The notes beneath the pieces were generated by a model that was not told where the DNA came from, did not search any database, and worked only from the letters and a program-made list of their open reading frames with translations. Source: a candidate division WWE3 bacterium CSP1-7 (lineage in GTDB: Bacteria; Patescibacteriota; WWE3; 9FT-COMBO-53-11). Taken from it: a stretch of DNA of 64,000 bases. Position 1 is the first letter of the stretch. Every line of letters starts with the position of its first letter. The DNA is taken from positions 32,001 to 96,000 of the forward strand of contig LDXK01000001.1 of assembly GCA_001443395.1 (NCBI GenBank). Direction: 5' to 3'. The position numbers were made by a program, and so were the translations under genes. Below, piece after piece: positions 1,833 to 63,830 of the stretch.

Positions 1833-2843
1833 TTAAATAATCTCCTGCTTAAGTTCGGCCTCGATGAAAGAATCGAGTTCTCCGTCCAAAACAGAATCCG
1901 GATCCTTGGATTCAAAACCGGTGCGGAGATCCTTTACCTGCTTGTAGGGATGGAGAACATAGGAACGGATCTGGTTTCCCCAGCCGGGAGTGAGATACTC
2001 GCCGCGAAGCTGGGCTTCTTTCTGGCGGCGCTCTTCCTCCACCCGCGCAAACAGTTTTGCCTTGAGCAGTTTGAGCGCGATTTCCTTGTTTTTGGCCTGG
2101 TGCCGCTCGACCTGGCAGGTGACCACGATACCAGTTGGCTTGTGGCGAATCCGGACCGCAGTCTCCACCTTCTGGACATTCTGACCTCCCTTTCCGGAAG
2201 AGCGGAAAGTTCCTACTTCCAGGTCGTCATCCCGGATCTCGATCTCCGGGATCTCTTCCAAGAGCGGAATGACCTCCACCAGGGCGAAGGAGGTCTGGCG
2301 CAGATTCTGGGCGTTGAAAGGCGATTGGCGCACCAGCCGGTGGACGCCCGCCTCTCCTTTTAGGTAACCGAAGGCGAGGTTCCCCTTGATCTCAAAAGTC
2401 ACCGACTTGAATCCGGCTTCCTCCCCCGGGCTCTGCTCCAAAACAACCGTCTTCCAGCCCCGCCGCTCGGCGAGCCGCTGGTACATTCTCGCCAGCATCG
2501 CCACCCAATCCTGGGCTTCCGTTCCTCCCTGCCCCGAGTGGAGAGCGAGAATCGCATCGCTCTTGTCGTAGGGCGCGGACAGATAGGTTCTTAGCTCCAG
2601 CTTTCCCAGGAGTTCTTCCGCCATCTGGGACTCACCCACCTCGATCGCTAATTCCGTTTCTTCCACCTCGGCAATCTCCCGCTTTAGGTCGGCAATCTCC
2701 CGCATTACCTCTTGGGCCTTGAGATTGTCTTTCCAGAGGCCGGGGTGGGTAGACTGGGCTTCCAGGTCCCGCAGAACTCTCCTCTTCTCCTCAAAATCAA
2801 TTGTTTCTTTGATCTGTACTAAGCGTTTTTTAAGGTCATTCAT
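1833..2843 (-). CDS. prfB: Peptide chain release factor 2 (no programmed frameshift)
   Basis: SPF anticodon-mimic motif, GGQ motif, WGNQIRSYV. Confidence 0.96.
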
Positions 2844-2884
2844 TTTTATTTCTCTAAAAATGCTAGGTCGTTTCTTCGGCCGTC
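2841..2884 (+). mobile_element. Type A mini-cassette at clp-prfB junction
   Basis: CATTTTTA..TAAAAATG-CTA-GGTCG tttctt CGGCC-GTC|CATTTTTATTT; 11-bp duplication 2841-2851 and 2885-2895. Confidence 0.8.
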
Positions 2885-2889
2885 CATTT

Positions 2890-5463
2890 TTATTTGCTCA
2901 AGAAATCGAGATCGAGGGTGACGGTCTGCCCTTCTTTGATTTCACCGGTCAGAAGTTTGGTCGCCAACCGGGACTCCACCATATCCTGCATCACCCGGGT
3001 CAGGGGCCGGGCTCCCCACTCCGGAGCATAACCCATTTCGGCAATTTTAGCCGTAAACTCGGGGGTCGCCACAAGCTTGATGCTCTTGGCGGCCAAGTCT
3101 TTCTCCAATCCCTTGATCTTCAACTTGACAATCTTGCCCAGGTTCTCCTGGGAGAGCGGTTTGAAAATCATCACCCCATCGAACCGGTTCAAGAGTTCCG
3201 GCGGGAAAATACTTCGGATGTGCTCGAGGAATTCCTTCTTAAAATCCTCCACTCCCCGCCCCGCCATTAATTGGTCCTGGATGTATTTGGTGCCGGCGTT
3301 GGAGGTGGCGATGATGATGGTGTTGGTGAAGTCCACCGTTACGCCCCGGCCGTCGGTCAACCGCCCATCGTCGAAGACCTGCAGGAAGAGGTTGAGGATC
3401 TGGGGATGGGCCTTCTCAAACTCGTCCAACAGAACCAGAGAAAACGGTCGCTGGCGGATCGCTTCGGTGAGCTGGCCGGGTTCGACGCTCCCGGTTCCCG
3501 GGGGCGAACCGATCAGGCGGTAGATGTTCTTTAGGTCGGCAAACTCCGACATGTCCACCCGCGCCATCGCCTCTTTGTCCCCGAAATAGTGCTTGGCGAG
3601 GACCTTGGAGAGCTCGGTTTTTCCCACCCCGGTCGGTCCCACAAACAGGAAAGTGGAAATCGGTTTGTCTTCTTCGCGAATGCCGGCCCGCGACCGCCGC
3701 AGCGCATCGGCCACTCCCTTCACCGCTTCTTCCTGATTGATCAGTTCGGTGTGAATCCTCTCCTCCAGATTGAGAAGTTCCTTCGCCTCTTTTTGGGTGA
3801 TTTTGGTGACCGGAACTTTGGTTTTCTCGGAGACTAGAACGGCAATTTCCTCCTCTCCTACCACTCCTCCTCCGGTGTTCTTCTTCGCCAGGACCGCTTC
3901 CTCCAGAAGATCGATCGCCTTATCGGGCAGAACCCGCTCGTAGATCAACCGATCGGACATCTCCACCGCCGCGCGGATCGCCGGAAAAACAATCCGCACC
4001 GGCTTATGTTCTATCCGACTTGTCTTCTCCATCGCCTGCAACTGATACTCCAAAATCTCCAGGCTGTCTTCCCGCGTAGCCGCCGGCACCTCCACCAGCT
4101 CGAAAACCGCCGAAAAAGCATCGTTCGGTGAGATATATTTTCGGTAGTTCTCCCAAGAAGTAGCGCCGATCAGTTGGAGTTTACCGGTTTCAAGATGGGG
4201 ACGGAGAGAGTTGAAGATAAAGGAGGTCTGCGCCTCCGCTCCCGAAAGGATCAGATTGTGAATCTCGTCAATGAAGAGAACAATGCCACGGGAGATCTCG
4301 ACCTCATTCAGAATTTTTTGGATCCGTTCTCCCAACTCCCCTTCCGTCGGCGTCCCGGCCACCAGTGATCCGACGTCCAACTGAATAATCCGCCGGCCCT
4401 GGAGGGACACAAAGCGGGAACCCCGAACAACTTCCTGGGCAATTCCTTCCACCAGAGAACTTTTTCCCGAACCGGGCGGCCCAACCAAGAGGGCGTTGGC
4501 CTTTCGTTCCCGCGCCAAGATTCGGGCCGTTTCCTCGAGCGGCTTCTGCTTACCGATCATCAGTTTCAGCCGGCCGGCGGCGGCCTCCTTGGTCAAATCG
4601 ATGGAAAAAGTATCCAGGGTCGGGGTAACTCTTCCCGTCCAACCGCGATTGACGCCGCCAATCGGCCCCACCTCGTAATCGTCTTCCCAAATGAAGGGAA
4701 ACCGGACCCAATCTCTCCGTCTCTTCTCCCAGAGCAGAGATTGCTTAGCATCTTCCGATTTTTCCCCCGCGAGGCTGAGGGCCGCCGCCAGAAAATGAGA
4801 TGGGGAGATCGAGCTGAACTTGAGCGAGAAAGCCAGATCGTAGGCCCCCTTATAGATGTCTTTCAGAGGAGTGTCTTTGAGCCTCAGGGGGTCGAACTCC
4901 CCCACCCCGGTCCGGAAGAGAAATTCCCGGCCGGACTTTCCCCGAGCGAGTTTCCGGAATAACCGCGGCGGGTCTTTCACCGAAAGGATTGCCCAGCGAG
5001 CCGATTTGTGGACAAAATCCAGAAAATAAAACTTATCCTCCCAGGGACCGGTGATCTCGAGATGGGAACGTCCCATCCGCTTATAAAAAGCCAGAACCCC
5101 GGCGACCGCAAAAACCATCAGGGCGATGGAGGGGTAGTTAAAGAAGAGCCAAAACGGGAAGAGGAACCACAGCAAGAAAAAACCCAGGATGCCGACCGCC
5201 CCCAGGACGACGGCGATCGCCCCGATCAGCAACCGGACGAGACGAAAAGGAAAACCGAGAATTCTCCCGAAAAAGGTGTAGTCGCCGAACAGAGGGATAA
5301 AGAGAAGACGCGCCATCAAAGTCGTGGCCGTGATCTGGTCCAGATAAACAATTACCCGCCAAACGGTCCGGGTAAAATAGCGCACCCCTTCGACAAACCA
5401 AAAATAAGGCAGGTAGAGAAGCGCCTGGACCAGGTAAGAAGTTTCCGAAACTGCCCGATTCAT
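2890..5463 (-). CDS. ClpA/ClpB-family double AAA+ ATPase with N-terminal TM region
   Basis: [13 protein letters not shown] and [26 protein letters not shown]; hydrophobic N-terminal ~130 aa. Confidence 0.9.
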
Positions 5464-5482
5464 TGTTTTAATAATACAGGAC

Positions 5483-5848
5483 TTAACGCGCCAGCCAGAA
5501 AGAAACCAGGAAGAGCAGAATCAGGTGAAAGGACTGGTCGACGCCGAGGAGAAGCCAGACCGGCACGTCCTTCTCCGCCACCTTTTTGATCCGGCGGAGC
5601 CACCAGAACTCGAAGCGGCGGTTATCCAGGAGAGCGTGGGTCACCGCCAGGAACAAGGTCGCCCAAAATGCCTTCATAAAATCAACTCCAGCCAGGTAGA
5701 GCGCTCCAAAAGTAAAGATATGGTAACTAGCGACGTGCACCAAAAGAGGCGCAAAGTGCTTGGACTTCTCGTTCGCCATCCAATAGGTTTGGATAATCCA
5801 ATCGCCGATCAGATGGGCGATCAAAAGATAAATAAATATCTGGGCCAT
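5483..5848 (-). CDS. DUF3307-family membrane protein
   Basis: AHLIGDWIIQT...H...THALLD...DQSFH His/Asp pattern. Confidence 0.8.
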   Translation of the reverse strand: MAQIFIYLLIAHLIGDWIIQTYWMANEKSKHFAPLLVHVASYHIFTFGALYLAGVDFMKAFWATLFLAVTHALLDNRRFEFWWLRRIKKVAEKDVPVWLLLGVDQSFHLILLFLVSFWLAR

Positions 5849-5876
5849 TAATTCATATTATCTCAACACCTGGTAA

Positions 5877-5934
5877 GACGGCTCGGTTAAAGCCGAACCT
5901 AGTTATCCAGCACTCTCAAGAAAGTGCTGGATAA
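5877..5934 (-). mobile_element. Type A mini-cassette at secA 3' end
   Basis: TTATCCAGCACT..AGTGCTGGATAA-CTA-GGTTCGGC ttta ACCGAGCC-GTC|TTACCAG. Confidence 0.8.
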
Positions 5935-8411
5935 TGACACTTTTTCCATTTCTTTCCGGAACCACACCAGCAGGGATCGTTGCGGCCGAGCTTTGCAGCT
6001 TTGGGATTATCGCTTGGGGCCGGTGGCAGGACGCTCGCATCCGTCTCCTGTCCCAGATTCGCGGTGGGATGATGCAGTGCCACCGGCCGCGGCTGCGGCA
6101 GCGAAACCCGCTCCTTCCTCTTGATCTCGATCCGTTCCAACCGCTGGGCAAACGTCGACCAAATTTCGTTGATGAGGCGGTCAAAGAGCAGACGGGCTTC
6201 GTTCTTGTATTCCACCAGCGGGTCGCGGCCGCCGTATCCCCGCAGACCAATTCCCCGCCGCAGCTCATCCAACGTGTCGATGTGCTCGACCCAGAGAATG
6301 TCGAAAGATTGGAGAGCCAGCTGCTGGACAATTTTCAACCAATCCGCCGCGAATTCCTTGTGGTATTTTTCCCAAATCTCTTCGATTTTAGTGGAGTAGA
6401 GGGAAAGCTTGGAGAGCAGGAAAGACGACATTTCCTCTCCCCCACCCAGGATTTTTCTTCTGATGGTATAGGCAATATCCCGGTGTTTGTTGACGACGTC
6501 GTCATACTCGACCAGGTGTTTCCGCAGGTCGAAGTTGTAGCCCTCCACCCGTTTCTGGGCGCTCTCGATCGCGCCGGAGACGATCCGGCTCTCCAGGGGA
6601 ACATCCTCGGCGATACCGAATCGGTCCATCACTCTCTCCACCATCGCTCCGCCGAAAATCCGCATCAGATCATCCTGAAGCGCGACAAAAAAGCGGGATG
6701 ACCCGGGGTCCCCCTGCCGACCGGAACGGCCCCGCAGCTGGTTGTCGATGCGGCGGGATTCGTGCCGCTCGGTCCCGATCACGTGCAAACCGCCCAAATC
6801 GACGATTCCTTTCTCCAGCTTGATGTCCACCCCCCGCCCCGCCATGTTCGTCGCCACCGTCACCGCTCCCCGCTCACCCGCTTTGGCAATGATCTGCGCC
6901 TCCTTCTCATGCTGTTTGGCGTTCAGGAGTTCGTGGGGAATATTTTTGCGCTTGAGGAGTTTAGAGAGAAGCTCGTTCTTCTCGATGGATGTGGTTCCCA
7001 CCAGGACGGGCTGGCCCCGGCGGTGGCATTCGTCAATTTCGTTTGCGACCGCTTGAAACTTGCCGGTGACGGTCTTGTAGACCACGTCGGAATGGTCCTT
7101 CCTGATCATCGGTTCATGGGTCGGAATTACCACCACCTCCAGCTTGTAGATGCGGGAAAACTCTTCCGATTCGGTCGCCGCGGTCCCGGTCATGCCGGCC
7201 AGTTTTTGGTACATCCGAAAGTAGTTCTGAAAAGAGATCGTCGCCATCGTCTTACTCTCTTTTTGGATCGCCACTCCCTCTTTGGCCTCAATCGCCTGGT
7301 GCAGACCTTCGGAGTAGCGCCGGCCCATCATCAGCCGCCCGGTGAATTCGTCGACAATAATCACCTGGCCCTCTTTAACAATGTAGTCTCGATCCTTTTG
7401 GTAGAGAGTGGCGGCCTTGAGCGCCTGTTCGACGTGCCGGACGGTTTCAAAATCCTTCTCATAGAGGTTGGGTATGCCCAGCATTCTTTCCAGCTTCCGC
7501 AGACCAACTTCGGTCAGCGTCACGGAGCGGGATTTCTCGTCCATCGTGTAATCCGTCTTGGACACCAGATCGTTAACCAACTTCGCAAAATCGTAGTAGC
7601 GCTGGGTAGCTTCTTCCTGGGGAGCCGAGATGATCAAGGGAGTACGGGCCTCATCAATCAAAATCGAGTCCACCTCGTCCACAATCGCAAAGTGGTGCGC
7701 CCCCTCCTCCTCTCGGCCATTGACCTGCACGATCTGGGATGGGTCGTAGACCATGTTGTCGCGGAGATAATCGAAACCAAACTCGTTGTTGGTACCGTAG
7801 GTGATGTCGGCTTGATAGGCCTCGCGGCGGGAGACCTCCCGAAGATACTTTCCTTGCCCAAGCTGCATTTCCTCCGGTGTGCTGTCCTCTGCCACTAACT
7901 CCTGACTACTGGCTACTGGCTCAAAAAGATACGCCTTTTCGTGGTTCAAGCAACCCACCGACATCCCGAGCGCGTGAAAGATCGGCCCCATCCATTCGGC
8001 GTCCCGGCGCGCCAGGTAATCATTGACCGTAATCAGATGGACCCCCTGCCTCCCCAACGCATTGAGGTAGAGCGCCAGGGTCGCCGAGAGAGTTTTGCCC
8101 TCTCCGGTTTTTTGCTCAGCGATCTTTCCCTGGTGGAGAATTGCACCAGCGATCAACTGAACATCGTAGGGACGCATTCCAGTGGTTCGGGATGATGCTT
8201 CCCGTACCGCGGCGAAGGCCTCGGGAAGAAGCTGATCAAGAACCTCACCTTTTTCCAAACGCTCGCGAAATCCCACCGTTTTTTCTTTTAGTTTGGCGGG
8301 GGAAAGTTTTTTGAATTCAGGTTCCAGAGAATTTATTTTGACGACCGCCGGCCGGATGCTGCCGATCTCGCGCTCGTTGAAATCAAAGATTTTGGTGATG
8401 AAGGAAAACAT
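5916..8411 (-). CDS. secA: Preprotein translocase subunit SecA
   Basis: KTGEGKT, DEVD, TNMAGRG, QLRGRSGRQGDPG, C-terminal GRNDPCWCGSGKKWKKCH. Confidence 0.98.
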   Translation of the reverse strand: MFSFITKIFDFNEREIGSIRPAVVKINSLEPEFKKLSPAKLKEKTVGFRERLEKGEVLDQLLPEAFAAVREASSRTTGMRPYDVQLIAGAILHQGKIAEQKTGEGKTLSATLALYLNALGRQGVHLITVNDYLARRDAEWMGPIFHALGMSVGCLNHEKAYLFEPVASSQELVAEDSTPEEMQLGQGKYLREVSRREAYQADITYGTNNEFGFDYLRDNMVYDPSQIVQVNGREEEGAHHFAIVDEVDSILIDEARTPLIISAPQEEATQRYYDFAKLVNDLVSKTDYTMDEKSRSVTLTEVGLRKLERMLGIPNLYEKDFETVRHVEQALKAATLYQKDRDYIVKEGQVIIVDEFTGRLMMGRRYSEGLHQAIEAKEGVAIQKESKTMATISFQNYFRMYQKLAGMTGTAATESEEFSRIYKLEVVVIPTHEPMIRKDHSDVVYKTVTGKFQAVANEIDECHRRGQPVLVGTTSIEKNELLSKLLKRKNIPHELLNAKQHEKEAQIIAKAGERGAVTVATNMAGRGVDIKLEKGIVDLGGLHVIGTERHESRRIDNQLRGRSGRQGDPGSSRFFVALQDDLMRIFGGAMVERVMDRFGIAEDVPLESRIVSGAIESAQKRVEGYNFDLRKHLVEYDDVVNKHRDIAYTIRRKILGGGEEMSSFLLSKLSLYSTKIEEIWEKYHKEFAADWLKIVQQLALQSFDILWVEHIDTLDELRRGIGLRGYGGRDPLVEYKNEARLLFDRLINEIWSTFAQRLERIEIKRKERVSLPQPRPVALHHPTANLGQETDASVLPPAPSDNPKAAKLGRNDPCWCGSGKKWKKCHYPALS

Positions 8412-8461
8412 CTACCTAAAAGGATACCTCATCTTCTATTTCACGATGTATAATTAGCGCT

Positions 8462-15624: not shown

Positions 15625-15670
15625 CAATTATAAGCAGAGCTTGTAATTGCTAGCGATTCCGATCGCTTCT
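15625..15670 (+). mobile_element. Type A mini-cassette (variant end) duplicating the tRNA-Glu -10 box
   Basis: CAATTATAAGC-aga-GCTTGTAATTG-CTA-GCGAT tccg ATCGC-TTCT|CAATTATAAC. Confidence 0.7.
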
Positions 15671-21280: not shown

Positions 21281-21330
21281 TTAACCAATAACTAGAGGAG
21301 GTAGTTGACTGGTGGAATTTCCGATAATTG

Positions 21331-21357
21331 GTGCTGTCTTCGCTCCGCTCGGTTGCA
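21331..21357 (+). repeat. Type C element
   Basis: GTGCTGTCTTCGCTCCGCTCGGTTGCA, near-identical to 37990-38017 and related to 61276-61303. Confidence 0.65.
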
Positions 21358-21398
21358 ATTTTTCTTTGCAAAAGTAGTGATAAAATTAGTGCGTCCAT

Positions 21399-21472
21399 TG
21401 CGGGATGGTGCAACGGTAGCACGGTGGACTCTGAATCCATTAATCTTGGTTCGAATCCAAGTCCCGCAGCCA
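21399..21472 (+). tRNA. tRNA-Gln (CTG)
   Basis: TGCGGGA/TCCCGCA acceptor, GTGGA-CTCTGAA-TCCAT anticodon arm, GGTTCGAATCC, CCA. Confidence 0.96.
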
Positions 21473-21505
21473 TTCGACTCTGGTTCGACAAGCTCACCAT
21501 CACTC

Positions 21506-21766
21506 ATGGCCTATTTTGTCTACATTCTTCGCACTTCCTCAAATACCCTCTATACGGGTCAAACTGACAATCTGGAACGCAGACTCAAAGACCATAGGGA
21601 GAAATCTTCTAGATCTGCAAAGTATATACGGTATTTCCCTTCTTTTGATCTGGTCTACACAGAAACATTTCCTTCAAGAATTGAAGCGATGCGAAGAGAA
21701 CTTCAACTCAAACGATGGTCAAAAGCTGAAAAGGAAGCCCTGATCTATAATCGGAGGAGTATTTGA
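21506..21766 (+). CDS. Small GIY-YIG nuclease (UPF0213/YhbQ-like)
   Basis: YFVYILR...LYTG.T..LERR..DH, AKY, EAMRRE.QLK. Confidence 0.9.
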   Translation: MAYFVYILRTSSNTLYTGQTDNLERRLKDHREKSSRSAKYIRYFPSFDLVYTETFPSRIEAMRRELQLKRWSKAEKEALIYNRRSI

Positions 21767-25383: not shown

Positions 25384-25426
25384 GACGGCCGCCTATGGCG
25401 ACCTAGCATTTTGAAGAAACAAAATG
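25384..25426 (-). mobile_element. Type A mini-cassette at ndh start
   Basis: CATTTTG..CAAAATG-CTA-GGTCGCC ata GGCGGCC-GTC|CATTTTT. Confidence 0.8.
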
Positions 25427-31957: not shown

Positions 31958-31997
31958 GACGGCTCGGCTATGCCGAACCTAGCATTCCGGAGGAATG
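31958..31997 (-). mobile_element. Type A mini-cassette in recJ 3' end (translated)
   Basis: CATTCC-tcc-GGAATG-CTA-GGTTCGGC ata GCCGAGCC-GTC|CATTGA. Confidence 0.8.
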
Positions 31998-36713: not shown

Positions 36714-36754
36714 CAATTTTTCTTAAAAATTGCTAGCCCGCTTAGGCGGGCGTC
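36714..36754 (+). mobile_element. Type A mini-cassette after DUF3048 stop
   Basis: CAATTTTT-ctt-AAAAATTG-CTA-GCCCGC ttag GCGGGC-GTC|CAATTA. Confidence 0.8.
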
Positions 36755-37912: not shown

Positions 37913-37989
37913 CACGCTTTACTGGACTAGTAACCTCAAATCGTACCCTTTCATTACTCAATGTAACAAGATTGGAATCGGGGTTGCAA

Positions 37990-38046
37990 GTGCTGTCCTC
38001 GCTTACGCTCGGTTGCACTAATTACTCGCTAGCGCTGCGTCATTAG
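37990..38046 (+). repeat. Type C element with flanking stem
   Basis: GTGCTGTCCTCGCTTACGCTCGGTTGC-ACTAAT...ATTAGT. Confidence 0.65.
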
Positions 38047-38056
38047 TTCCGAGAAG

Positions 38057-38098
38057 GACGGCTTGGCTACGCCAAACCTAGCCTTAGCTTTGCTAAAG
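38057..38098 (-). mobile_element. Type A mini-cassette in promoter of 38106 gene
   Basis: CTTTAGC-aaa-GCTAAGG-CTA-GGTTTGGC gta GCCAAGCC-GTC|CTT. Confidence 0.75.
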
Positions 38099-38105
38099 TT
38101 AAACC

Positions 38106-38399
38106 GTGGCTAAGAAAACCCGCCAAGAGAAGGATCTGGCCCGGCTCCGTCGGCAGATAGAAGTGCTAAGGGCCCAAAACAGCGAGCGTTCCCATGACTA
38201 CTCCCCTCCCCCGCGGGAGGTGCAAGAAGAAAGCAAGCCGGGAAAATCTACGGAACCACCGATCAAGAATTTGGAAATCAGAAAAGTCGCCCCTAAATTT
38301 ATTAAAGCCGATCTGCTCAAAACCATCGTCCTCTCTTTGGCGGCGCTGGCAGTTATCGCCGCTTTATATCTGTTGCGCAATCAAATTCCTTTCCTCTAG
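38106..38399 (+). CDS. Hypothetical protein with C-terminal TM anchor
   Basis: Basic N-terminus, hydrophobic C-terminal helix; GTG 6 nt after TG-c-TAAAGT. Confidence 0.7.
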   Translation: MAKKTRQEKDLARLRRQIEVLRAQNSERSHDYSPPPREVQEESKPGKSTEPPIKNLEIRKVAPKFIKADLLKTIVLSLAALAVIAALYLLRNQIPFL

Positions 38400-38422: not shown

Positions 38423-38470
38423 GACAAGAAGTACAATCCCGGCCTAGAGTTCTTCCCTAGGCCGGTATTG
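38423..38470 (-). mobile_element. Degenerate type A cassette with recoded comM 3' end
   Basis: QYRPREEL* encoded twice (38444-38470, 38396-38422); junction GTC|CAATAC; inner hairpin lost. Confidence 0.8.
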
Positions 38471-42550: not shown

Positions 42551-43773
42551 TAGACTTGGGATTCAAACCGAGCTTCGCGGATCACGACCACCCTTACTCC
42601 TCCCGGTGTGACAACTTGATCCTTAATCCGCTTGCCGATCTCCTGGACCAACTGCGCCGAACGTTCATCGGAAACCTCCCCGGCCTTCACGATCACTCGA
42701 AGTTCCCGGCCGGCGGTAATCGCATAGGCATCATCAACTCCGGAAAAAGACTTGGCGATGTTTTCCAGGTCGGTCACTCGTTTGACGTACCCCTCAATAT
42801 CCTCGTAACGAGCTCCGGGACGGGAGCCGGAAATGGCATCGGCGATGTAAACCAATTCGGCTTCGATCGATTTCTTTTCCTCCCGGCCGTGGTGGGAAGC
42901 CGCCGCGTTGACCAGTTTTTCCGGAAATCCAAAACGTTCCAGAATCTTTCTGGTCAAGATGTCATGGGGCTCACCGGATTCGGAGGTTGCCACCTTGCCG
43001 ATGTCGTGAAAAAGAGCCGCGGCCTTAGCGAGCTCCACATCCGCCCCCACCTCCGCCGCCAGATAACTCACCAGCTTAACCATTTCCAGAGAGTGCTTCG
43101 CCAGATTTTGACCGTAGGAGGTCCGAAACTTGAACCGGCCTAAGAGCTCAACAATCCCGCCGGGCAGCCCTCCCAAGCCTGTTTCCAACGCCAGCTGTTC
43201 TCCTTCGCGGCGGATCTCGTGATCGATGTCACCTTTAACCGAGGAAACGACGGTTTCGATGTTCTCGGGCTGGAAGCGATCCTCCTTGATGAGCCGTTCC
43301 AGGGAGAGACGAGCGATGTGCCGGCGGACCGGGTCAAACGAGGAAATCCGCACCGCTTTCGGAGATTCCTCCAAGTCCAACTCCACTCCCGTCGCCCGTT
43401 CGAAAGCCCGGACGTTGCGGCCCTCCTTGCCGATGATTTTGCCCTTCCAATCTTCGGATGGAAGCTCCACCACCGAAACGGTAAATTCCGCCACGTAGGA
43501 AGTGGCAGCGTGCTCCATCGCAGAAACGAGAATGTCGCGGCTGCGATCCTCCGATTCCGCTTTGATCTGCTCCTCCACCTCAGCCATCCGCTGCGCTTTC
43601 TCATTCACCAACTCCTGGTCCAACTCCTTGAGAATCATCTTGCGCGCATCTTCCCGCGATAACGCGGCCGACTTCTCGAGCTCTTTCAGGTATTTTTCTT
43701 TCAGTTGTTCGACGGAGAGATTATCCGGAGACTCCGGACTTTCCGAAGGGTCTTTGATTTTTTTGTCTTTCAT
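42550..43773 (-). CDS. rny: Ribonuclease Y (no N-terminal TM helix)
   Basis: KH GKIIGKEGRN, RTSYGQN, HDIGK, DAISGSRPGAR. Confidence 0.93.
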   Translation of the reverse strand: MKDKKIKDPSESPESPDNLSVEQLKEKYLKELEKSAALSREDARKMILKELDQELVNEKAQRMAEVEEQIKAESEDRSRDILVSAMEHAATSYVAEFTVSVVELPSEDWKGKIIGKEGRNVRAFERATGVELDLEESPKAVRISSFDPVRRHIARLSLERLIKEDRFQPENIETVVSSVKGDIDHEIRREGEQLALETGLGGLPGGIVELLGRFKFRTSYGQNLAKHSLEMVKLVSYLAAEVGADVELAKAAALFHDIGKVATSESGEPHDILTRKILERFGFPEKLVNAAASHHGREEKKSIEAELVYIADAISGSRPGARYEDIEGYVKRVTDLENIAKSFSGVDDAYAITAGRELRVIVKAGEVSDERSAQLVQEIGKRIKDQVVTPGGVRVVVIREARFESQV

Positions 43774-43812
43774 TTTGGTTTACCAAAATGCTAGGGCGTT
43801 TCTGCGCCCGTC
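43771..43812 (+). mobile_element. Type A mini-cassette at rny start
   Basis: CATTTTGG-ttta-CCAAAATG-CTA-GGGCG tttctg CGCCC-GTC|CATTTTTT. Confidence 0.8.
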
Positions 43813-45704: not shown

Positions 45705-45792
45705 CGCCCCTCCCTTTCCCCTTGTTTTTAGGACTTAAGTATATCCGGGAAAGTGGAAAATTCAAGGGAGAGAGGATAGAATTGGAGAAGCT

Positions 45793-45857
45793 TCGGGGCG
45801 TAAGGCCTTGCTTCGCAAGGACCATGCCCCCCGATTCGCCGTGCTCATCGGGGCGTA
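45793..45857 (+). mobile_element. Type B cassette duplicating the tRNA-Pro 5' end
   Basis: TCGGGGCG-TAA-GG-CCTTGC ttc GCAAGG-A-CC-ATGCCCCCGA...TCGGGGCGTA. Confidence 0.6.
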
Positions 45858-45923
45858 GGTCATCGGTAGACCGCTCGCATGGGGTGCGAGAGGTAGTGGG
45901 TTCAATTCCCGCCGCCCCGACCA
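45849..45923 (+). tRNA. tRNA-Pro (GGG)
   Basis: CGGGGCG/CGCCCCG acceptor, CTCGC-ATGGGGT-GCGAG anticodon arm, GGTTCAATTCC, CCA. Confidence 0.95.
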
Positions 45924-47223: not shown

Positions 47224-47315
47224 GACGCGACCTTGTCGCTAGAAATTTTGCGAAGCAAAATTTAACGGCCGCGGACGCATCCTAGCAGTATTCTTCGCTA
47301 ACGCTTCGAATACTG
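47224..47315 (-). mobile_element. Two tandem type A cassettes at rpsI 3' end
   Basis: Units 47264-47315 and 47224-47263; QYSKR* encoded twice. Confidence 0.85.
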
Positions 47316-47702
47316 TGGCCGCTTGCGGGCTTTCTTGAGGAAATATTTCTTTCTCTCTTTTTCGCGGGGGTTGCGAGTCATCAAGCCGGCATCGCGCAAT
47401 GGCTTGCGCAGGTCTCCATTGAAAAGGACGAGAGCTCGGGAAATTCCCAAGACGATAGCGTCCAATTGACCAACCTTACCTCCCCCCTCCGCCCGGGCAA
47501 CAAAGTAAAATTTATCTTCCGTTCCGGTCGCTCTGTAAGGCAAAACCAACTTGGCTTGGAAAGAATCAATCGGAAAATATTTAGAAACGGGGGTGCCGTT
47601 CACAGTTGATTCCCCTTTTCCGGCGAACAACCGGACCGTGGTGGTCGCTTCCTTCCTTCGGCCGATCGCTTGATAAAATTTTCCTTGCTTTTTTTCTGAC
47701 AT
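47298..47702 (-). CDS. rpsI: 30S protein S9
   Basis: GRRK, GGG..GQ, ERKK, PQYSKR. Confidence 0.97.
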   Translation of the reverse strand: MSEKKQGKFYQAIGRRKEATTTVRLFAGKGESTVNGTPVSKYFPIDSFQAKLVLPYRATGTEDKFYFVARAEGGGKVGQLDAIVLGISRALVLFNGDLRKPLRDAGLMTRNPREKERKKYFLKKARKRPQYSKR

Positions 47703-47745
47703 TTTATTTCTTTAAAATGCTAGGTTCGGCGTTAGCCGAGCCGTC
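47700..47745 (+). mobile_element. Type A mini-cassette at rplM-rpsI junction (translated as L13 tail)
   Basis: CATTTTA..TAAAATG-CTA-GGTTCGGC gtta GCCGAGCC-GTC|CATTTT. Confidence 0.8.
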
Positions 47746-49333: not shown

Positions 49334-49376
49334 GACGCCCGCCTCAGGCGGACTAGCTATCCGCTAACGCGAATAG
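49334..49376 (-). mobile_element. Type A mini-cassette at rpsD 3' end
   Basis: CTATTCGC-gtta-GCGGATAG-CTA-GTCCGCC tga GGCGGGC-GTC|CTATTCAAGATAA. Confidence 0.85.
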
Positions 49377-49982: not shown

Positions 49983-50101
49983 GACGGCTCGCCTGCGGCG
50001 AACCTAGCAATGTCCCGCTTACTGTCTCCGAACTGAAATTTTGTCATAGTATTTTCTTTATCCATTACACTCTTCGGCGGTTCTTTGGCCGCGGGCCATT
50101 G
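49983..50101 (-). mobile_element. Type A cassette with recoded rpsK 3' end
   Basis: [11 protein letters not shown] encoded twice (50065-50101, 49946-49982). Confidence 0.9.
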
Positions 50102-50436
50102 TGGGGGATCGGGGTCACATCGGTGATCGCTGTGACTTCCAGCCCACCAACTTTTAAGGCTTTGATCGCGGAATCGCGGCCGGGTCCCGGCCCCTTTACC
50201 AAAACAGAAACTTCTTTAACACCCAATTGACGGGCGGATTTCGCGATGGCCTCGGCGGCTTGAGAAGCGGCAAAGGGAGTCGCCTTTTTGGTTCCTTTAA
50301 AACCGGCCGTCCCCGCCGAGCCCCGCACGATCACTCCCCCGACCTCCTCCCCGATTGTAATCAACGTGTTGTTGAAAGTGCAGGTGATGTGGGCTACTGC
50401 TCTTTCCGGTATTTTGCGTTCTTTCTTTTTTGACAT
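50065..50436 (-). CDS. rpsK: 30S protein S11
   Basis: [28 protein letters not shown]. Confidence 0.97.
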
Positions 50437-50477
50437 TTTTTGTTTATTCAAAATGCTAGGTCGTTTCTTCGGCCGTC
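50434..50477 (+). mobile_element. Type A mini-cassette at rpsM-rpsK junction
   Basis: CATTTT..AAAATG-CTA-GGTCGTTTCTTCGGCC-GTC|CATTA; core identical to the 2841 and 57694 copies. Confidence 0.8.
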
Positions 50478-50906: not shown

Positions 50907-51004
50907 GACTGTCCTCGCTAAAGCTCGGTTGGACGGTCGCCTTAGGTGACCTAGCAATCTCTCTACACTCGATTGTACAAACATAGTTCTTATAGTCATC
51001 CTTG
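50907..51004 (-). mobile_element. Stacked cassettes at rpmJ 3' end
   Basis: CAAGGATGA duplicated (50996-51004, 50898-50906); internal type A unit plus type C-like unit, each ending GTC|CAA. Confidence 0.75.
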
Positions 51005-51109
51005 TCTCTGTTTGTGCTTGGGATTCTTGCAAACGACGTAGAGACGCCCCTGGCGCTTAATAATCTTGCAATCTCTGCAAATTTTTTTAACTGATGCTCT
51101 AACTTTCAT
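50996..51109 (-). CDS. rpmJ: 50S protein L36
   Basis: Hand translation [37 protein letters not shown]. Confidence 0.96.
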
Positions 51110-51143
51110 TTTCTTTTGAAAGATAGCGATTTCTCATCGCGTC
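51103..51143 (+). mobile_element. Type A mini-cassette (ATA variant) at rpmJ start
   Basis: CTTTCA..TGAAAG-ATA-GCGAT ttctc ATCGC-GTC|CTTTCAT; ATGAAAG duplicated. Confidence 0.75.
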
Positions 51144-56458: not shown

Positions 56459-56459
56459 T

Positions 56460-57739: not shown

Positions 57740-57747
57740 CATACGGC

Positions 57748-58152
57748 TCATTTCTTGACAATCTTCGTGGCGAGAGGCAACTTGGCCGCCGCCAATTTTA
57801 GGGCCTTCTCGGAAAGCTCCGCGGGAACACCGGAAATCTCAAGCAGGATCCGTCCCGGTTTGATTTCGGCCGCGTAGTGGTCTACTGCCGATTTTCCTCC
57901 CCCCATCCGAATTTCCGCCGGCTTTTTGGAAACCGGTTTGTCGGGGAAGATCCTGATCCACAACTTTCCCCCTCTTTCCGTGTATCCCCGAATAACCTTT
58001 CGAGCCGCCTCAATGTGCCGGGAGGAAAGATTCCCTTTTGTCAGGGCTTGCAGACCGTATTCCCCAAAGGAGACCTCGCTGCCACGCCAGGCCTTGCCCT
58101 TGATCCGGCCGCGAAAACGTTTTCTGAATTTTGTCTTTTTTGGTAACAGCAT
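57748..58152 (-). CDS. rplP: 50S protein L16
   Basis: [26 protein letters not shown]. Confidence 0.97.
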
Positions 58153-58155
58153 TTT

Positions 58156-58788
58156 TTAATCCTTGTTCAGCTCACCTCGGAAAACCCAAACCTTAACTCC
58201 AATTTTTCCGTAGCGCGTGGAGGCAAAACGGCCGGCAAAATCGATATCGGCTCTCAGAGTGGAGAGCGGGATCGATCCGCGCGAAATCTTTTCTCTTCGC
58301 GCAATCTCGGATCCCCCCAATCTCCCGGCCGCCTCGATCTTTACCCCCTTTGCTCCCCGACTCATCGACTCCTCGACGATCTCATTCAAAACTCTTCGAT
58401 ACTGACGCCCCCGCCGCTCCAGAATATTCACCACCCGGTCCGCCAGAAGAGCCGCGGAGGTGGCCGGCGATTTGGATTCGACGATATCCAGCTCCACCGG
58501 GACTTCCAGAATTCTTGTCAGTTCTACCTTGAGGAGCTCGGCGCCGCCGCCGCCCCGGCCGATGACCAAACCGGGCTTGGCCACAATCACGACCACTTTA
58601 ACCTTTGATCCGGAACGTTCGATCTCGATGTCCTCCAAACCCGCTTCTATAAGCCTCGCGGCGAGGAAACGGCGGATCCGCGAGTCCTCTCCGGCGTTCT
58701 TGGCGTAATCCCGATCGCTAAACCAGCGCGAGCGCCACGGCAGAAAAGTGCCCGTTCTCAGAGATTTGGGACTCAGCTTATGACCCAC
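58156..58788 (-). CDS. rpsC: 30S protein S3
   Basis: GHK..P..LR.G, PG.VIGRGG, GRLGG.EIAR, PL.TLRADID; GTG after GGAG. Confidence 0.96.
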   Translation of the reverse strand: MGHKLSPKSLRTGTFLPWRSRWFSDRDYAKNAGEDSRIRRFLAARLIEAGLEDIEIERSGSKVKVVVIVAKPGLVIGRGGGGAELLKVELTRILEVPVELDIVESKSPATSAALLADRVVNILERRGRQYRRVLNEIVEESMSRGAKGVKIEAAGRLGGSEIARREKISRGSIPLSTLRADIDFAGRFASTRYGKIGVKVWVFRGELNKD

Positions 58789-59209
58789 TGTTACTCCTTT
58801 CATCTCTATCAGCGATCTTCTTTAGAACGACCATTAGATGGGTGGAGGGGCTGATAATCATTCCGCGCGATCCCCGGGATTTCGGGTCCACTCGCCGCCG
58901 AAAGGTAGGTCCCTTGTCCGCCCGAACTTCCGCCACCAACCAGGTTTCTTTATCGAAACCGGCTCCGGCGTTGGCAGAAGCGGAGTGGAGAACATCGGCC
59001 ACCGTTTCGCCGCCGCGGGTACCGCTGAACTTCAGGATAGTTTCGGCTACAACCACCCTCTTGCCGCGGATCAAGCGCGCGAAATCCCGGACTTTGGTCG
59101 GGGTAATCTTCAGGTAGCGACCAATAGCCCGCGCTTCCGTCTTTGCGGGAGCGACCGGAACCGCCGGTACCGATTTTTCTTTTTTGTCTTTAATCTTTGT
59201 TTTTTCCAT
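58778..59209 (-). CDS. rplV: 50S protein L22
   Basis: P.KVR..A.LIRGK, SA.ANA, GP..RR..P.SRG. Confidence 0.94.
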   Translation of the reverse strand: MEKTKIKDKKEKSVPAVPVAPAKTEARAIGRYLKITPTKVRDFARLIRGKRVVVAETILKFSGTRGGETVADVLHSASANAGAGFDKETWLVAEVRADKGPTFRRRVDPKSRGSRGMIISPSTHLMVVLKKIADRDERSNSGS

Positions 59210-59502
59210 TAGACTCTTCCCTCCGAGAGGGTCGCCTTGACCCCTTTTGCCCCATGCTTCCGGAAGGTCCGCGTCGGGGAAAACTCTCCCAAATGATGTC
59301 CCACCATCGCCTCGACAATTTTTACCGGGATGTGCTCTTTTCCGTTGTAAACCGCAATCGTTAACCCCACCATTTCCGGGGAAACTTGGGAAGAGCGCGA
59401 CCAGGTTCGAATCGGCTCGTTGCTACCGGCTTCTTTGGCCCGCAAAACCTTTTTCATCAATTTTGGCTCGATAAACGGCCCTTTTTTGTTACTTCGGCTC
59501 AT
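59209..59502 (-). CDS. rpsS: 30S protein S19
   Basis: [24 protein letters not shown]. Confidence 0.97.
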
Positions 59503-60248
59503 CTTTTCTTTTTCCTCAATACAATGTAACGATCGGTATGAAAGCGCTTCCGCGTCTTCTTGCCCAGAGTGGGTTTACCCCAAGGAGTTTTGGGACCGGG
59601 CATTCCGATTCCGGAACGGCCTTCTCCCCCTCCGTGCGGATGGGAGGACGGATTCTGCGCCACTCCCCGCACCGTGGGCCGAATCCCCATGTGCCGTTTG
59701 ATCCCAGCCTTCCCGTATTTTCTCAGCTTGCGCTCCACTCCCGCCAAACGGCCGACCGTCGCCCAACAATCTTTAAATATGCGGCGAACTTCTCCGGAGG
59801 GCATCTTTAGGTGGACGAACTCATCCTCCCGCGCCACCACCACCGCGGCCGAACCGGCCGTCCGGACAAACTGCGCTCCCCTTCCGGGGATGAGCTCGAC
59901 GTTGTGAACCTCGGTTCCCACCGGAATCTTGCCGATCGGCAGGGCATTCCCGGTTCGGATCGGGGCGGAATCATCACTGACCACCTGGTCCCCGACCTGG
60001 AGCTTCTCCGGCTGGAGAATAAACCGCCGCTCTCCGTCTTTGTAGACCAGCCGAGCGAGATTGGCAGAGCGGTTGGGGTCGTACTCGAACAGCTCCACCC
60101 GCCCCGGCAGTCCGCGCTTATCGCGTTTAAAGTCTATCACCCGATAGAGCCGTTTGGCGCCTCCGCCGTGGTGGCGAGTCGTTACTTTTCCGAGGCTCCG
60201 CCCCACCGCCCGCTTTCGGCCAAATTTTAGAGTCTTTGGTTTGGTCAC
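59499..60248 (-). CDS. rplB: 50S protein L2 (short N-terminus)
   Basis: [32 protein letters not shown]. Confidence 0.97.
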
Positions 60249-60544
60249 TTTTCTTCAAAAAACTCAATCTTCCCCTCCGACAAAGTCACCAAGGCCTTTT
60301 TAACCGCACTCTGTTCCGCCCGCACCGGTCGCTTTTTGGGTGTCCGCCAGCGAGTCTCTTTTCCGGGAGTGCGAATAATGGCGACCTTCGCCACTTTGGT
60401 TCCTTTGTGAAGAAGCTCGACCGCCGCGGCCACATCTTTCTTCGTGGCCTGAGGCGCAATCTCAAAAAGATATTTTCCCTGACGGGCCTGGGCGTAGCCC
60501 TTTTCCGAAACCACCGGCTTTTTTAAAACTTGATAGATGTTCAT
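60245..60544 (-). CDS. rplW: 50S protein L23
   Basis: PVVSEK, ATK.DV..AVE, KKALVTL. Confidence 0.92.
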   Translation of the reverse strand: MNIYQVLKKPVVSEKGYAQARQGKYLFEIAPQATKKDVAAAVELLHKGTKVAKVAIIRTPGKETRWRTPKKRPVRAEQSAVKKALVTLSEGKIEFFEEK

Positions 60545-61260
60545 CGCTTCTTGCTCTTTGTCTTTCGCTTAGGGCCAACCGTCTTTTTTACTACTTTCAC
60601 TGGCTTTATCGCCTTTACCACTTTTACCGTCTTTCTTTTCTCCGTCAATCTCTCCTTGAGCTTCCCAATGCTTTCCTGGAAAAAAACCAGATCGCCGGAG
60701 TTGAGAACCTCATAGGGATTCAGGTTCCCCACCAACTCCACCGTCGCGTCCGCCAGATTCCGGAAGGAACGGAAGACATTGGTATTCATTTCAGGAACGA
60801 CCACCAAAGCTTTCCGAGTTTTGAGTTTCGCCAAAAGCTGTTGGGCAACGGCGGTTTTCGGCTCTTTGAAAACTGGGTCCACGACCACCCAAACCCTTTC
60901 CGCCGCCGCTTTGGCAGAGAGTGCCGACCGTAACGCCAAGTCCTTAACCTTTTTGGTCAGAAGCGCCTCAAAGGTGCGAGGCCGGGGACCAAAGGTTATC
61001 CCCCCGCCAACCCAAATCGGAGAACGAACCGAACCGTGCCGCGCCCGCCCCGTGCCCTTCTGGGCCCAGGGTTTGCGTCCCCCACCGGAGACCTCACCCC
61101 GAGTCTTGGTGGCCACCGTTCCGGCCCGCTGGATGTTCCGATAGACGTGGATGTACTGACGCAGGACCGTGAGGTTTGGCTTCACTCCAAAGATATCCTC
61201 CGGCAGTTCAATCTTCTTTTCGGTTTTTACTCCCTTCGCGCTATAGATACTAACTTTCAT
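60541..61260 (-). CDS. rplD: 50S protein L4
   Basis: [29 protein letters not shown]. Confidence 0.97.
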
Positions 61261-61309
61261 GGTCTTTTCATGAAATTGCAACCCCCTTTAGCGGGGACAG
61301 CACTCTCAT
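61252..61309 (-). mobile_element. Type C cassette with replacement rplD 5' end
   Basis: ATGAGAGT-GCTGTCCCCGCTAAAGGGGGTTGC-AATTTCAT..ATGAAAGTT (MRV versus MKV). Confidence 0.65.
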
Positions 61310-61836
61310 TGTTTTTTCTCCTCTTCCTTAACTTCTTCCTTCGAACTCTCGGTTCCCGGCGCGGCTTTTTCCGCCGGCGGAATCTCGCTCTCCGTTACGG
61401 TCTCGCCGGGTTCGTAAAATATCGTTAGATTACTCAGCCGCGGGCCGGGAAGAGCTCCCGAGATCCTGGCGATTTTCTTCTCGGTATCCACCTCCACCAC
61501 CGATAATCCCGGCACCGTCACCTGCTCCCCACCCATGCGGCCGGCCATCCGCTTGCCGCGATAGACTCGGCCGGGAGTGGTTGTGCCGCCGATCGAACCT
61601 GGAGCGCGCCCCTTGGTCGAGCGGCCGTGGGTTGCCGGCATTCCTGCAAAACCGTGGCGCTTCATCACTCCGGCAAAGCCCTTTCCCTTGGACGTTCCCA
61701 CCACTCTAACGGGCGTCCCGGGGGTAAAATCGGCCGGAATCTCCGTCAGCGAAACCGCGGTCACAGGAACAACTCTCCCGTCGGGCGAGAAAACCTGACC
61801 CATATCCAATTTTCGAGCTTCGATTTTGTTAGTCAC
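61306..61836 (-). CDS. rplC: 50S protein L3 (internally shortened)
   Basis: [36 protein letters not shown]. Confidence 0.94.
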
Positions 61837-61992
61837 AAAAAAAGCCGCTGCTCAAGCGGCCAAAAAGTCAGCGAGTTATTAGCACTAGCCAGCCGTATCC
61901 CGAGAACCCGCCTGCCGACTGCTGTCTGCTGTCTTTGTGAAACGCTTGGGCATTAACGAAGAGATAATAACAGAAGAAATCAAGCTTAGCAA
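61837..61992 (-). promoter_or_regulatory. rplC promoter and structured leader ending in a terminator
   Basis: TTGCTA-17-TATTAT; GCCGCT-tgagc-AGCGGC-TTTTTTT directly before GTG. Confidence 0.65.
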
Positions 61993-62054
61993 CAGTGAGG
62001 ATCATTTTCGAGTAAAACGAGAAAAGAGGGTTGGTGAGCCCTTAGCGAACCGCC

Positions 62055-62363
62055 CTACATCTTCACCTCTACCCCGACGCCGGCGGGGAGATCGAGGTTG
62101 GAGAGTTCATCAATGGTTTTGGGGGTGGGTTCTTCGATATCGACCAGCCTTTTGTGCGTTAGGATTTCAAACGATTCGCGGGAACGCTTGTCGATGTGAG
62201 GGGAACGGATCACAGTAAAAATCTCCCGTTCTGTCGGGAGTGGGATGGGGCCTACGACCTTGGCGCCGGTGCGAATCGCCGCATCGACAATCTTCTCCGC
62301 GCTGCGGTCAATCACCCGGGCGTCGTAAGCTTTTAAACGAACTCTAATCCTTCCTTTTGGCAT
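62055..62363 (-). CDS. rpsJ: 30S protein S10
   Basis: LKAYD, GPIPLPT, RSPH..K.SRE.F, LPAGV. Confidence 0.97.
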
Positions 62364-62400
62364 GAAACGTGCTACTTACCCTAGTCGGCGGGAGATCAGG

Positions 62401-63591
62401 TTACTTGATAACCTTGGAAACGACTCCCGCTCCCACTGTGTGCCCTCCTTCGCGAATTGCGAAGCGCACACCCTCTTCGAGAGCAATCGGCTGAATCAGT
62501 TTTGCCGTAACTTTGACGTTGTCACCCGGCATCACCATCTCCACCTCTTTGGGAAGAGTAACCTCGCCCGTTACATCGGTGGTCCGCAGGTAGAACTGCG
62601 GCCGATAGCCGGTGAAGAAAGGAGTGTGGCGCCCGCCTTCCTCTTTGGAGAGAACGTAGACCTCGGCCTCAAACTCGGTGTGGGGAGTAATCGAACCGGG
62701 AATCGCCACTACCTGACCGCGCTCGATATCGTCCCGCTCAATTCCGCGGAGAAGAAGACCGACGTTGTCACCGGCCTGAGCTTCATCCAACGATTTGCGA
62801 AACATCTCTACTCCGGTCACGACCGTCTTTTTTGTATCCTTTAGACCGACCAACTCAACTTCATCGTTTACCTTGATCTTGCCACGATCGACGCGACCGG
62901 TCGCAACTGTTCCTCGGCCCTTGATGGAGAAAACATCTTCCACCGGCATCAGGAAAGGTTTGTCCAGATCGCGTACCGGAGTGGGAATGTAGTCATCGAC
63001 TGCTTTCATTAACTCTTCGATGCTCTTGAGAGCCTCGGCGTCACCGTCGAGGGCTTTCAAGGCGGAACCACGAATCACCGGAACTTTGTCACCCGGGTAT
63101 TCGTACTTGCTCAGGAGCTCCCGAACCTCAACCTCCACCAGGTCGATTAGCTCCTTGTCGTCAACCATGTCCACTTTGTTGATGAAAACGACAATCGCCG
63201 GCACGTTCACCTGGTGCGCCAAAAGAATGTGCTCCCGGGTTTGCGGCATCGGGCCGTCCGGAGCAGAAACAACCAAAATCGCCCCATCCATCTGAGCGGC
63301 GCCGGTGATCATATTCTTAATGTAGTCGGCGTGTCCCGGAGCGTCGATGTGAGCGTAGTGGCGCTTCTCGGTTTCGTATTCGACGTGAGAAATGTTAATG
63401 GTAATCCCACGTTCCTTTTCCTCGGGAGATTTGTCGATATCTTCAAACTTATAAAACTCCGACATCCCCTTGGTGGAAAGGTATTTGGTGATGGCCGCGG
63501 TAAGGGTGGTCTTCCCGTGGTCAACGTGGCCGATTGTGCCCACGTTTACGTGGGGTTTGGTTCTTTCAAATTTCTTTGCTGCTTCTGCCAT
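62401..63591 (-). CDS. tuf: Elongation factor Tu
   Basis: [30 protein letters not shown]. Confidence 0.99.
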
Positions 63592-63602
63592 TGGACTAGT
63601 AG

Positions 63603-63631
63603 ATGTTAGAGCTTAATGCTAAGTATGTCAA
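63603..63631 (-). promoter_or_regulatory. Sigma70-type tuf promoter
   Basis: TTGACA-17bp-TAACAT. Confidence 0.7.
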
Positions 63632-63692
63632 GCCCCTTGTTTCCCCCCAGAGATGATTTTCTGCGCCACGTTCTCCGGAACCTTCTCGTAAT

Positions 63693-63830
63693 AAGGCTTC
63701 TCGCTAACGCTCAGGAACCTTGTCCGCCTCTGGCGGATAAGGCTTCTCGCTAACGCTCGAAGACCATCTTACTCACGCTTCCCACCGGAAATGATTTTTG
63801 AGGCAACACTTTCCGGGACGCGTTCGTAAT
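63693..63830 (-). mobile_element. Two tandem type B cassettes with replacement fusA 3' end
   Basis: TAAGGCTTCTCGCTAACGCTC twice around TCCGCC-tct-GGCGGA; fusA C-terminus duplicated at 63628-63692. Confidence 0.8.

Follow-up and report, generated by a model that had tools for sequence, protein, structure and literature searches.

The window studied here, a 64,000-nucleotide stretch of candidate division WWE3 bacterium CSP1-7 (contig LDXK01000001.1, positions 32,001 to 96,000), holds housekeeping and ribosomal genes and is part of a 572-kb genome that is 80% complete; relatives in its class measure 0.4-1.4 Mb. We label this genome G000 and its congener, the closest genome to it, G002. Scattered among the genes are short hairpin units with the layout X-loop-X'-NTAG-hairpin-CGTC|X, in which X' pairs with X. 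An original prediction, made from the letters alone, had listed 18 of them and read them as integron-like mini-cassettes that insert at gene ends. Seventeen of the 18 coordinates could be rebuilt, and 16 units conform to the layout, but the one at 38423, at the end of comM, lacks a core hairpin. Further deviations are a TTC tail instead of GTC at 15625, a GTT tail at 47264, an ATA start at 51103, and a true span of 50932-50975, within a second core type, for the unit listed at 50907. Unit length ranges from 36 to 69 nt with a median of 44 (161 cases). CTA and GTC had been called near-invariant; across 217 cores the invariant parts are T-A-G and C-G-T-C, and the first base of the tag varies (CTA 167, TTA 26, GTA 13, ATA 11). 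The units match no Rfam model: a scan of the window returned nothing but tRNAs at the gathering threshold, and between 43700 and 51300 no relevant match appeared up to an E-value of 5. Weak Rfam signals and a reverse-strand match surround the tRNA at 45849-45920 (45792-45921).

There are 67 strict CTAG-hairpin-CGTC cores in the genome, where five order-3 Markov genomes gave 3-7 each; the window has 14 of them, against 0-1 across 20 simulations. A covariance model, the check proposed with the original prediction, was run on the window and on the genome's relatives; it gave 16 matches in the window, many of them training rows. The fair test of pairing used 217 distinct cores from six genomes, selected on Watson-Crick pairs only and with the flanks ignored. 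Between X' and the bases after CGTC, Watson-Crick pairs occur at position 2 in 177 of 217 cores (101.5+-6.2 when shuffled) and at position 3 in 169 (85.2+-6.5), followed by 139, 124 and 95 at positions 4, 5 and 6 (111.2, 76.3 and 62.5), and are near chance from position 8 on. The claim that the stems vary freely yet keep pairing held, with covariation at positions 2-6 far beyond the shuffles. One alignment (A1) was 92% paired with a covariation of 0.77 versus 0.19, pair counts that are biased to structure because its rows were picked for pairing. The fit of X' to the two copies was compared for 128 units: the unit's own first copy is the better match in 88 and the worse one in 14, and 26 show no difference, in line with the original prediction.

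Wobble pairs distinguish the two strands of the core. At position 3 of the core hairpin, T.G occurs in 91 of the 217 cores and C.A in one; over 124 distinct core hairpins, G.T outnumbers A.C by 56 to 7, which identifies the strand running from NTAG to CGTC as the one that folds. GNA triloops, at 16 versus 6, point to the same strand. Because the folding strand is antisense at gene starts, single-stranded DNA is favoured over mRNA as the folded molecule. Strand-specific folding at the DNA level, suggested originally by G.T mismatches and the presence of units on both strands, is supported by the wobble bias and by this antisense position.

The junctions follow a short motif. In 164 of 210 cases the two bases behind the core are CA or CT, which have a background of 16% after any CGTC; X itself varies (CAT 50, CAA 31, CTT 19 and CTA 11 of 140). 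Of 147 single units, 90% have an A or T immediately before the first X, and the exact cut falls inside the shared X, which leaves its placement ambiguous. Crude gene calls for 49 units genome-wide show 21 that overlap a called terminus at their upstream side, another 27 that lie between genes or could not be assigned, and one inside a gene, where 76.5% of random sites fall. The statement that X is always a functional end was therefore too strong; in the window, the units at 36714, 38057 and 50932 lie at neither a start codon nor last codons on the expected side. The accompanying strand rule, under which units at gene ends are co-directional with the gene and those at starts opposite, has exceptions in the unit at 36714 and one unit in genome G042. 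It follows from the layout, because the upstream gene on the folded strand keeps the element's X, which is an end if that strand is sense and a start if it is antisense. Start-type rows open a frame of at least 60 codons in 67 of 79 cases (a few of which overlap), compared with 937 of 2991 background sites, and a purine-rich stretch comes in together with the new ATG. Their lengths show no frame preference (25/15/23 by length modulo 3), and the old ATG has no fixed stop position. Precise X-guided insertion is supported, but the proposed integration at gene ends is more plausibly the outcome of targeting to a short motif, together with purifying selection, than of gene ends being recognised as such. 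A role in translational bypass or as a leader peptide was rejected on the frame statistics. Type IA topoisomerases follow a rule of C at -4 of the cut, which misfits the target side here (C at -4 in 22%), and a likeness to loop A of the hairpin ribozyme was rejected on sequence.

Comparison with G002 reveals turnover. Out of 67 clusters, 24 were unaligned, one lay at an edge and 42 aligned; dropping four chance matches in coding sequence and merging two pairs left 36 sites, which we judged by hand. Twenty-three are empty in G002, 12 are occupied in both genomes and one differs in copy number. The single-X empty alleles that had been predicted in relatives were found, ten of the 23 empty sites being clean unit-length indels that leave one X. 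Occupancy does not follow overall similarity, as the rny unit is present in G000, G001 and G003 and missing in G002. In sequencing runs X7 and X5, a near-identical contig carries a G002-like allele lacking both units at 37993-38115, including the one at 38057, a sign of allele exchange within the population. Units also stack, in exact tandem and up to four at rpsD in G003, and head-to-head double-core dumbbells occur. In some, opposite cores share one X/X' duplex in a symmetric dumbbell (G000 contig C3, 51653-51716, and C5, 18196-18257; locus L041, 578-672; L047, 19447-19513), and G002 has one double-core dumbbell near each of two tyrosine recombinase genes. Contig C7 of G000, at 58% GC and with phage-like genes, is unmatched in G002 and may be a prophage or a binning stray.

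The family is narrowly distributed. With at most 49 candidates scored per genome, the core-1 model matches all 10 genomes of the family, two of 124 other class genomes (G042 with 5 matches, the other genome weakly) and, weakly, one of 150 genomes of the phylum; this model and that of a second core were both trained on GC-rich rows. G042 is unrelated, has a GC content of 38% and has ribosomal genes with units of their own, whereas no unit stands at the site compared in its congener. Units with the second core are laid out in the same way but have another internal loop and a compensatory stem pair; this core was found in nine of 10 family genomes, weakly in one of 124 others and in none of 150 phylum genomes; a third core type is probable near 63.7 kb of the window. 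Viral contigs gave a single pattern match, inside a coding stretch and taken as chance. A pattern search of metagenomes gave 18 stretches with model matches among 80 of 115, and those inspected have housekeeping-gene surroundings like the family's own.

Table 1. Hairpin units and a candidate nuclease gene in the window (coordinates count from the first base of the window).
Feature	Position	Strand	Remarks
Core-1 unit, start type	2841..2884	+	supplies prfB start codon; empty in G002, G003
Core-1 unit, end type	5877..5934	-	supplies secA last codons and stop
Degenerate core-1 unit, TTC tail	15625..15669	+	10 nt 5' of tRNA; weak model match, E 0.07; X contains a TATAAT-like box
Core-2 unit (same layout, other core), upstream of tRNA	21325..21364	-	
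86-aa GIY-YIG nuclease gene, directly behind tRNA	21506..21766	+	candidate only
Core-1 unit, start type, oxidoreductase gene	25384..25426	-	two stacked in G002, G001; none in G003, G007
Core-1 unit, recJ 3' end	31958..31997	-	40-bp indel vs G002
Core-1 unit, intergenic, strand-rule exception	36714..36754	+	G002, G003 with altered stems; absent in G001, G007
Core-2 unit	37984..38024	-	
Core-1 unit in 5' leader, adjoins core-2 unit	38057..38098	-	
comM/yifB end duplication, X hairpin, core hairpin lost	38423..38470	-	48-bp indel vs G001, G003
Core-1 unit, start type, rny	43771..43812	+	same unit in G003, two in G001, none in G002
Two stacked core-1 units, rpsI end	47224..47315	-	duplicated recoded C-terminus
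Core-1 unit, start type, rpsI	47700..47745	+	common to G002; absent in G001, G003
Core-1 unit, first hairpin is last rpsD codons (YSR, stop)	49334..49376	-	43-bp indel vs G002; stack of four in G003
Core-1 unit with 94-nt cargo	49983..50101	-	synonymously recoded rpsK C-terminus and downstream DNA
Core-1 unit, start type, rpsK	50434..50477	+	G002: different core hairpin, same site
Core-1 unit inserted into core-2 hairpin (50908-50931)	50932..50975	-	
Core-1 unit, ATA tag	51103..51143	+	supplies rpmJ start
Core-1 unit, start type, rpmC	57694..57739	+	46-bp indel vs G002
Core-2 unit	61270..61309	+	indel vs G002
Tandem units, probable third core type	63690..63770 (approximate)	-	3' end of gene starting beyond window

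Recoded replacement ends at conserved sites, which the original prediction had described in this window, recur in several genera. The site at the rpsK C-terminus is occupied in G000, G001, G006, G007 and G008 and empty in G002, G003 and G004, and the ends of rpsD, rpsI and rpmJ as well as tRNA 5' ends are likewise duplicated in several genomes. The two rpsK ends of G000 differ in 7 of 11 codons, all synonymously; against G002, 28 of 102 codons differ upstream of the site and 7 of 11 and 9 of 11 downstream of it. This pattern of synonymous recoding argues that both copies evolved as working ends and, judged from these codons, they would most simply have done so in different lineages. The two rpsK copies of G006 are nearly identical, as expected for a fresh local capture. 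A search for longer cargo between X and X' turned up gene ends and nothing else, its three kilobase-scale repeats being rejected as separate unit pairs or chance, and none of the 228 core-1 cores examined carries an enzyme gene. AT-rich low-complexity repeats of CAATTAT and GAATTT type occur at L018 and L031 (the rpsK-rpsD and rpmJ-rpsM junctions) and at L028, and G002 and G007, of different genera, have a close copy of an AT-rich junction repeat in common. We also noted a gene in G000 (C5, 14592-14948) that we take to be four-helix-bundle-like.

What was observed is the layout, the strand that folds, the bias in targets, the precise gain and loss of units and the recoded ends; from these we infer a circle, its chemistry, a capture route and transfer between lineages. 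The reading that we favour, and regard as rather probable, is that the units are non-autonomous circles of single-stranded DNA whose 3' end is set by the core and whose 5' end is chosen by the guide, with W|C(A/T) as the site of insertion. Such mobile elements would act in folded form, the NTAG-hairpin-CGTC core fixing the 3' end and X', just 5' of the core, serving as a self-encoded guide whose pairing sets the 5' end. At excision X' would pair with the element's own first bases and close a dumbbell circle; at insertion it would pair with a chromosomal strand that matches it over 3-14 nt (W|C, followed by A/T), leaving X on either side of the unit. Insertions within genes would mostly be purged, with survivors intergenic or at termini, and a surviving terminal unit would supply a new start region or last codons. 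Were X' to pair farther upstream at excision, the circle would capture a gene end, which might then be carried to the same site in another lineage. Movement would depend on a putative trans-acting strand-transfer enzyme. As to its nature, we lean slightly towards some other enzyme or none, hold an HUH/Y1-type enzyme possible though a little less so, and consider a GIY-YIG nuclease with host repair unlikely and a tyrosine recombinase more unlikely still. The boldest version, to which we give somewhat less than an even chance, is a new class of 40-nt single-stranded DNA dumbbells with interchangeable protein-binding cores, a reprogrammable guide and an undescribed enzyme, swapping the termini of essential genes and tRNAs across lineages.

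Several points weigh against the guided-circle reading. The unit copies are mutually related, so that counts overstate the number of independent events, and the G.T bias cannot tell DNA from RNA (GNRA tetraloops 9 versus 1). Whole-allele recombination could give the same recoded rpsK pattern, and the absence of an enzyme gene among the 228 cores counts here as well. Direct repeats around a hairpin delete by slippage, so precise loss of a unit needs no enzyme. No CGTC|X circle junction was found in the assembled contigs of four runs, a result that is no evidence of absence, as contigs drop rare forms. No enzyme follows the element: Xer-like tyrosine recombinases occur class-wide (57 of 61 genomes), whereas the element is hardly met outside the family; GIY-YIG genes are present in 51 of 61 genomes; and Y1 genes occur in 57 of 134 class genomes, with none found in the element-bearing G002, G005, G006 and G042 (81-90% complete). 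Of the co-occurring genes that the original prediction proposed to look for (tyrosine recombinase, HUH/Y1 transposase, GIY-YIG), none tracks the distribution of the units.

The individual candidates fared as follows. In G000 (80% complete), where an integron integrase was sought, a single PF00589 match is XerC/D-like and below every NCBIfam cut-off. A second Xer-like recombinase, found class-wide, lies at 55484-56374 of C3 (L002), is 98% identical in G002 and has an NDLRH motif at the position where tyrosine recombinases usually have HxLRH. The Y1 genes have subclass-2.1 motifs and palindromes of their own, and a core-1 match lies at one of 11 Y1 loci, about 1 kb away. Short AACCC/GGGTT palindromes bracket such subclass-2.1-like genes (L001, 1130-1200; L004-L013), and the Y1 gene of G000 has its first four codons duplicated and recoded, with a core-2 unit between the copies. 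Small GIY-YIG genes adjoin tRNAs in 22 of 26 cases in the family, compared with five of 25 sampled elsewhere in the class. Ten of the 26 have flanking repeats of at least 11 nt, which are tRNA ends in some cases and just adjacent tRNAs or hairpins in others, and four have a core-1 match within 300 bp, a count confounded by tRNA targets. The GIY-YIG protein of the window is 40% identical to an NTS-flanked homolog. Several GIY-YIG genes (window 21399-21766; L080-L105) sit between duplicated tRNA ends, with hairpins and no integrase, and such small genes reach nine copies per genome across the class. At L420 (G016) a GIY-YIG gene is flanked by canonical NTS-like hairpins, and true Ssn-SRM pairs also exist in the class. 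The tRNA-linked genes share the replace-the-end logic and remain enzyme candidates; these cassettes may be a gene-carrying form of the dumbbell elements. DUF559 and reverse transcriptase genes were absent from G000, a by-eye reading of 236 soluble G000 proteins gave no enzyme candidate, and in G042 (40 of about 120 contigs and one locus) no gene had anomalous identity to its genus.

Among the alternatives, the one that survives best, though we think it improbable, is that these are ordinary REP/SRM-type repeats spread by a REP transposase or Ssn-type nuclease, with the duplicated X and the guide arm as by-products of cutting and repair. The tag, invariant at T2-A3-G4, stands 5' of a short perfect hairpin with CA or CT adjoining, and group-3 REP transposases cut C|T and C|A by means of tag bases T2, A3 and G4 (PMC8266576). 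The X:X' duplex is flanked by GTC and CTAG like the NTS stem (PMC11893778), and several of the tRNA-adjacent GIY-YIG genes have duplicated tRNA ends. However, the NTS nuclease depends on stem sequence as well as on the GTC/CTAG flanks (PMC11893778); SsnA, as described there, requires stem sequence and structure and cuts upstream of its motif, whereas the stems here vary freely. The Y1 genes, by their subclass, their own palindromes and the one core-1 match among 11 loci, speak against a REP transposase, and the better fit of X' to its own copy than to the target is not predicted by in-place repair.

Less probable again is the absence of any dedicated enzyme, with hairpin single-stranded fragments, for instance from natural transformation, entering replication forks by template switching through X microhomology, slippage deleting them and homologous recombination swapping alleles. 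The fruitless enzyme searches, the exact tandem stacks and the G002-like allele in runs X7 and X5 fit this account, and single-strand invasion driven by microhomology has been described (10.1101/2024.07.02.601687). It leaves unexplained why the bases of the 3x3 internal loop are invariant, why the 3' junction is fixed and targets are biased to W|C(A/T), and why a second core has an invariant loop of its own.

Very improbable in our view are integron-like cassettes whose folded site a resident tyrosine recombinase reads as IntI reads attC. Homology 3' of the cut does suit tyrosine recombinase chemistry, the long hairpin has an unpaired central loop with the crossover beside it, and every one of the 10 family genomes has at least one tyrosine recombinase. 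IntI, moreover, inserts cassettes at short genomic GWT sites (10.1101/2022.09.11.507474). Against it stand the missing R-box consensus, the lack of an IntI above cut-off, a core arm of just 5-8 bp, and a recombinase that is class-wide with core-1 matches at only three of 18 recombinase loci. Domesticated, vertically inherited regulatory hairpins acting in translation start control, mRNA processing or termination, for which the purine-rich stretch with its new ATG and the 12 of 36 sites common to G002 might speak, are equally remote and already weakened by the antisense wobble-favoured strand at starts, the frame and stop statistics, the 23 of 36 sites empty in the congener and the lack of an Rfam match.

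The units bear on the question of how REP-type repeats spread, as the boundaries of insertion, the rule for targets and the turnover are in this case legible in the sequence itself. If the guide model is true, the units would be a natural and very small DNA-programmed insertion system in streamlined genomes, giving genes new translation starts and ribosomal proteins new last codons, and would point to an uncharacterised strand-transfer enzyme.

Set beside known systems, the units share features with many and belong to none of the families tested. Integrative islands restore the 3' end of tRNA or protein genes, and here too the element supplies a duplicated target gene end; the units, in contrast, measure 40-120 nt, have no integrase and occupy starts as well as ends at dozens of sites per genome. 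Integron attC sites are marked by conserved RYYYAAC and GTTRRRY boxes, which are absent here while X varies, so the original exclusion of attC was right, even if the strand-specific folded single-stranded site of attC is present. Further likenesses to attC/attG sites and SALINs are an own start that pairs with the own end, short genomic target motifs and stacking (10.1101/2022.09.11.507474), whereas the units lack R boxes, an integrase and usually gene cargo, and their target follows the guide. They are not MITEs, which have terminal inverted repeats and a target duplication of fixed length, the units' ends being X and CGTC and their repeat length running from 3 to more than 30 nt. With IS200/IS605 elements, including engineered IS608, they share a single-stranded element and a target chosen by DNA-DNA pairing (PMC5934647), but they are about 44 nt long and have no transposase gene. 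Two subterminal hairpins and a fixed tetranucleotide guide and target, as in IS200/IS605 elements and PATEs, are replaced by one core and a guide that covaries with its target. Extended target pairing is known only from engineered IS608, where it lies upstream of the cut (PMC5934647), whereas the unit guide is natural, spans 3-14 nt and pairs 3' of the cut.

The closest relatives are REP-type repeats. Like GTAG REPs and group-3 TnpAREP sites, the units have a tag 5' of a short perfect hairpin and CA or CT adjoining the junction (PMC8266576; PMC6006769); the tag, however, is mostly CTAG (GTAG in 13 of 217, and commoner in G042), and no cognate TnpAREP flanked by the repeat was found for the units here. 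They differ further in their fixed CGTC tail, their guide arm and their single or tandem arrangement, inverted pairs not being the rule. Subclass-2.1 Y1 genes have been described without REPs (PMC6006769), and CGTC repeats have been reported without a dedicated transposase (PMC3733652). With CGTC REPs and NTS-SRM repeats the units share a duplex bounded by CGTC and CTAG-like sequence, activity of one single strand (PMC3733652; PMC11893778), an intergenic position, high copy number and small GIY-YIG genes in the same genomes. The canonical form, with CGTC 5' of an AT-starting stem of 8-9 bp, has five mostly chance-like matches in G000, and in the units CGTC lies 3' of the core hairpin. They are, moreover, circularly permuted relative to NTS, a second hairpin joining the flanks and the duplex forming with the target, and differ in their free stem sequence, duplicated X and replaced gene ends. 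The original prediction rightly set them apart from GTAG REPs but dismissed REPs too quickly, since the core is a permuted NTS/CGTC layout with a CA/CT junction. Its statement that no such family had been described stands in the literature searched, which is thin on subscription journals and gave no description of the X-loop-X'-core-X layout. The best model is that the units descend from REP/NTS-type hairpins yet fall outside the REP, NTS, attC and MITE families; our verdict is that they form a real and active family of hairpin elements, minimal and guide-bearing, which derives from parts of REP/NTS type and is contained in no family tested.

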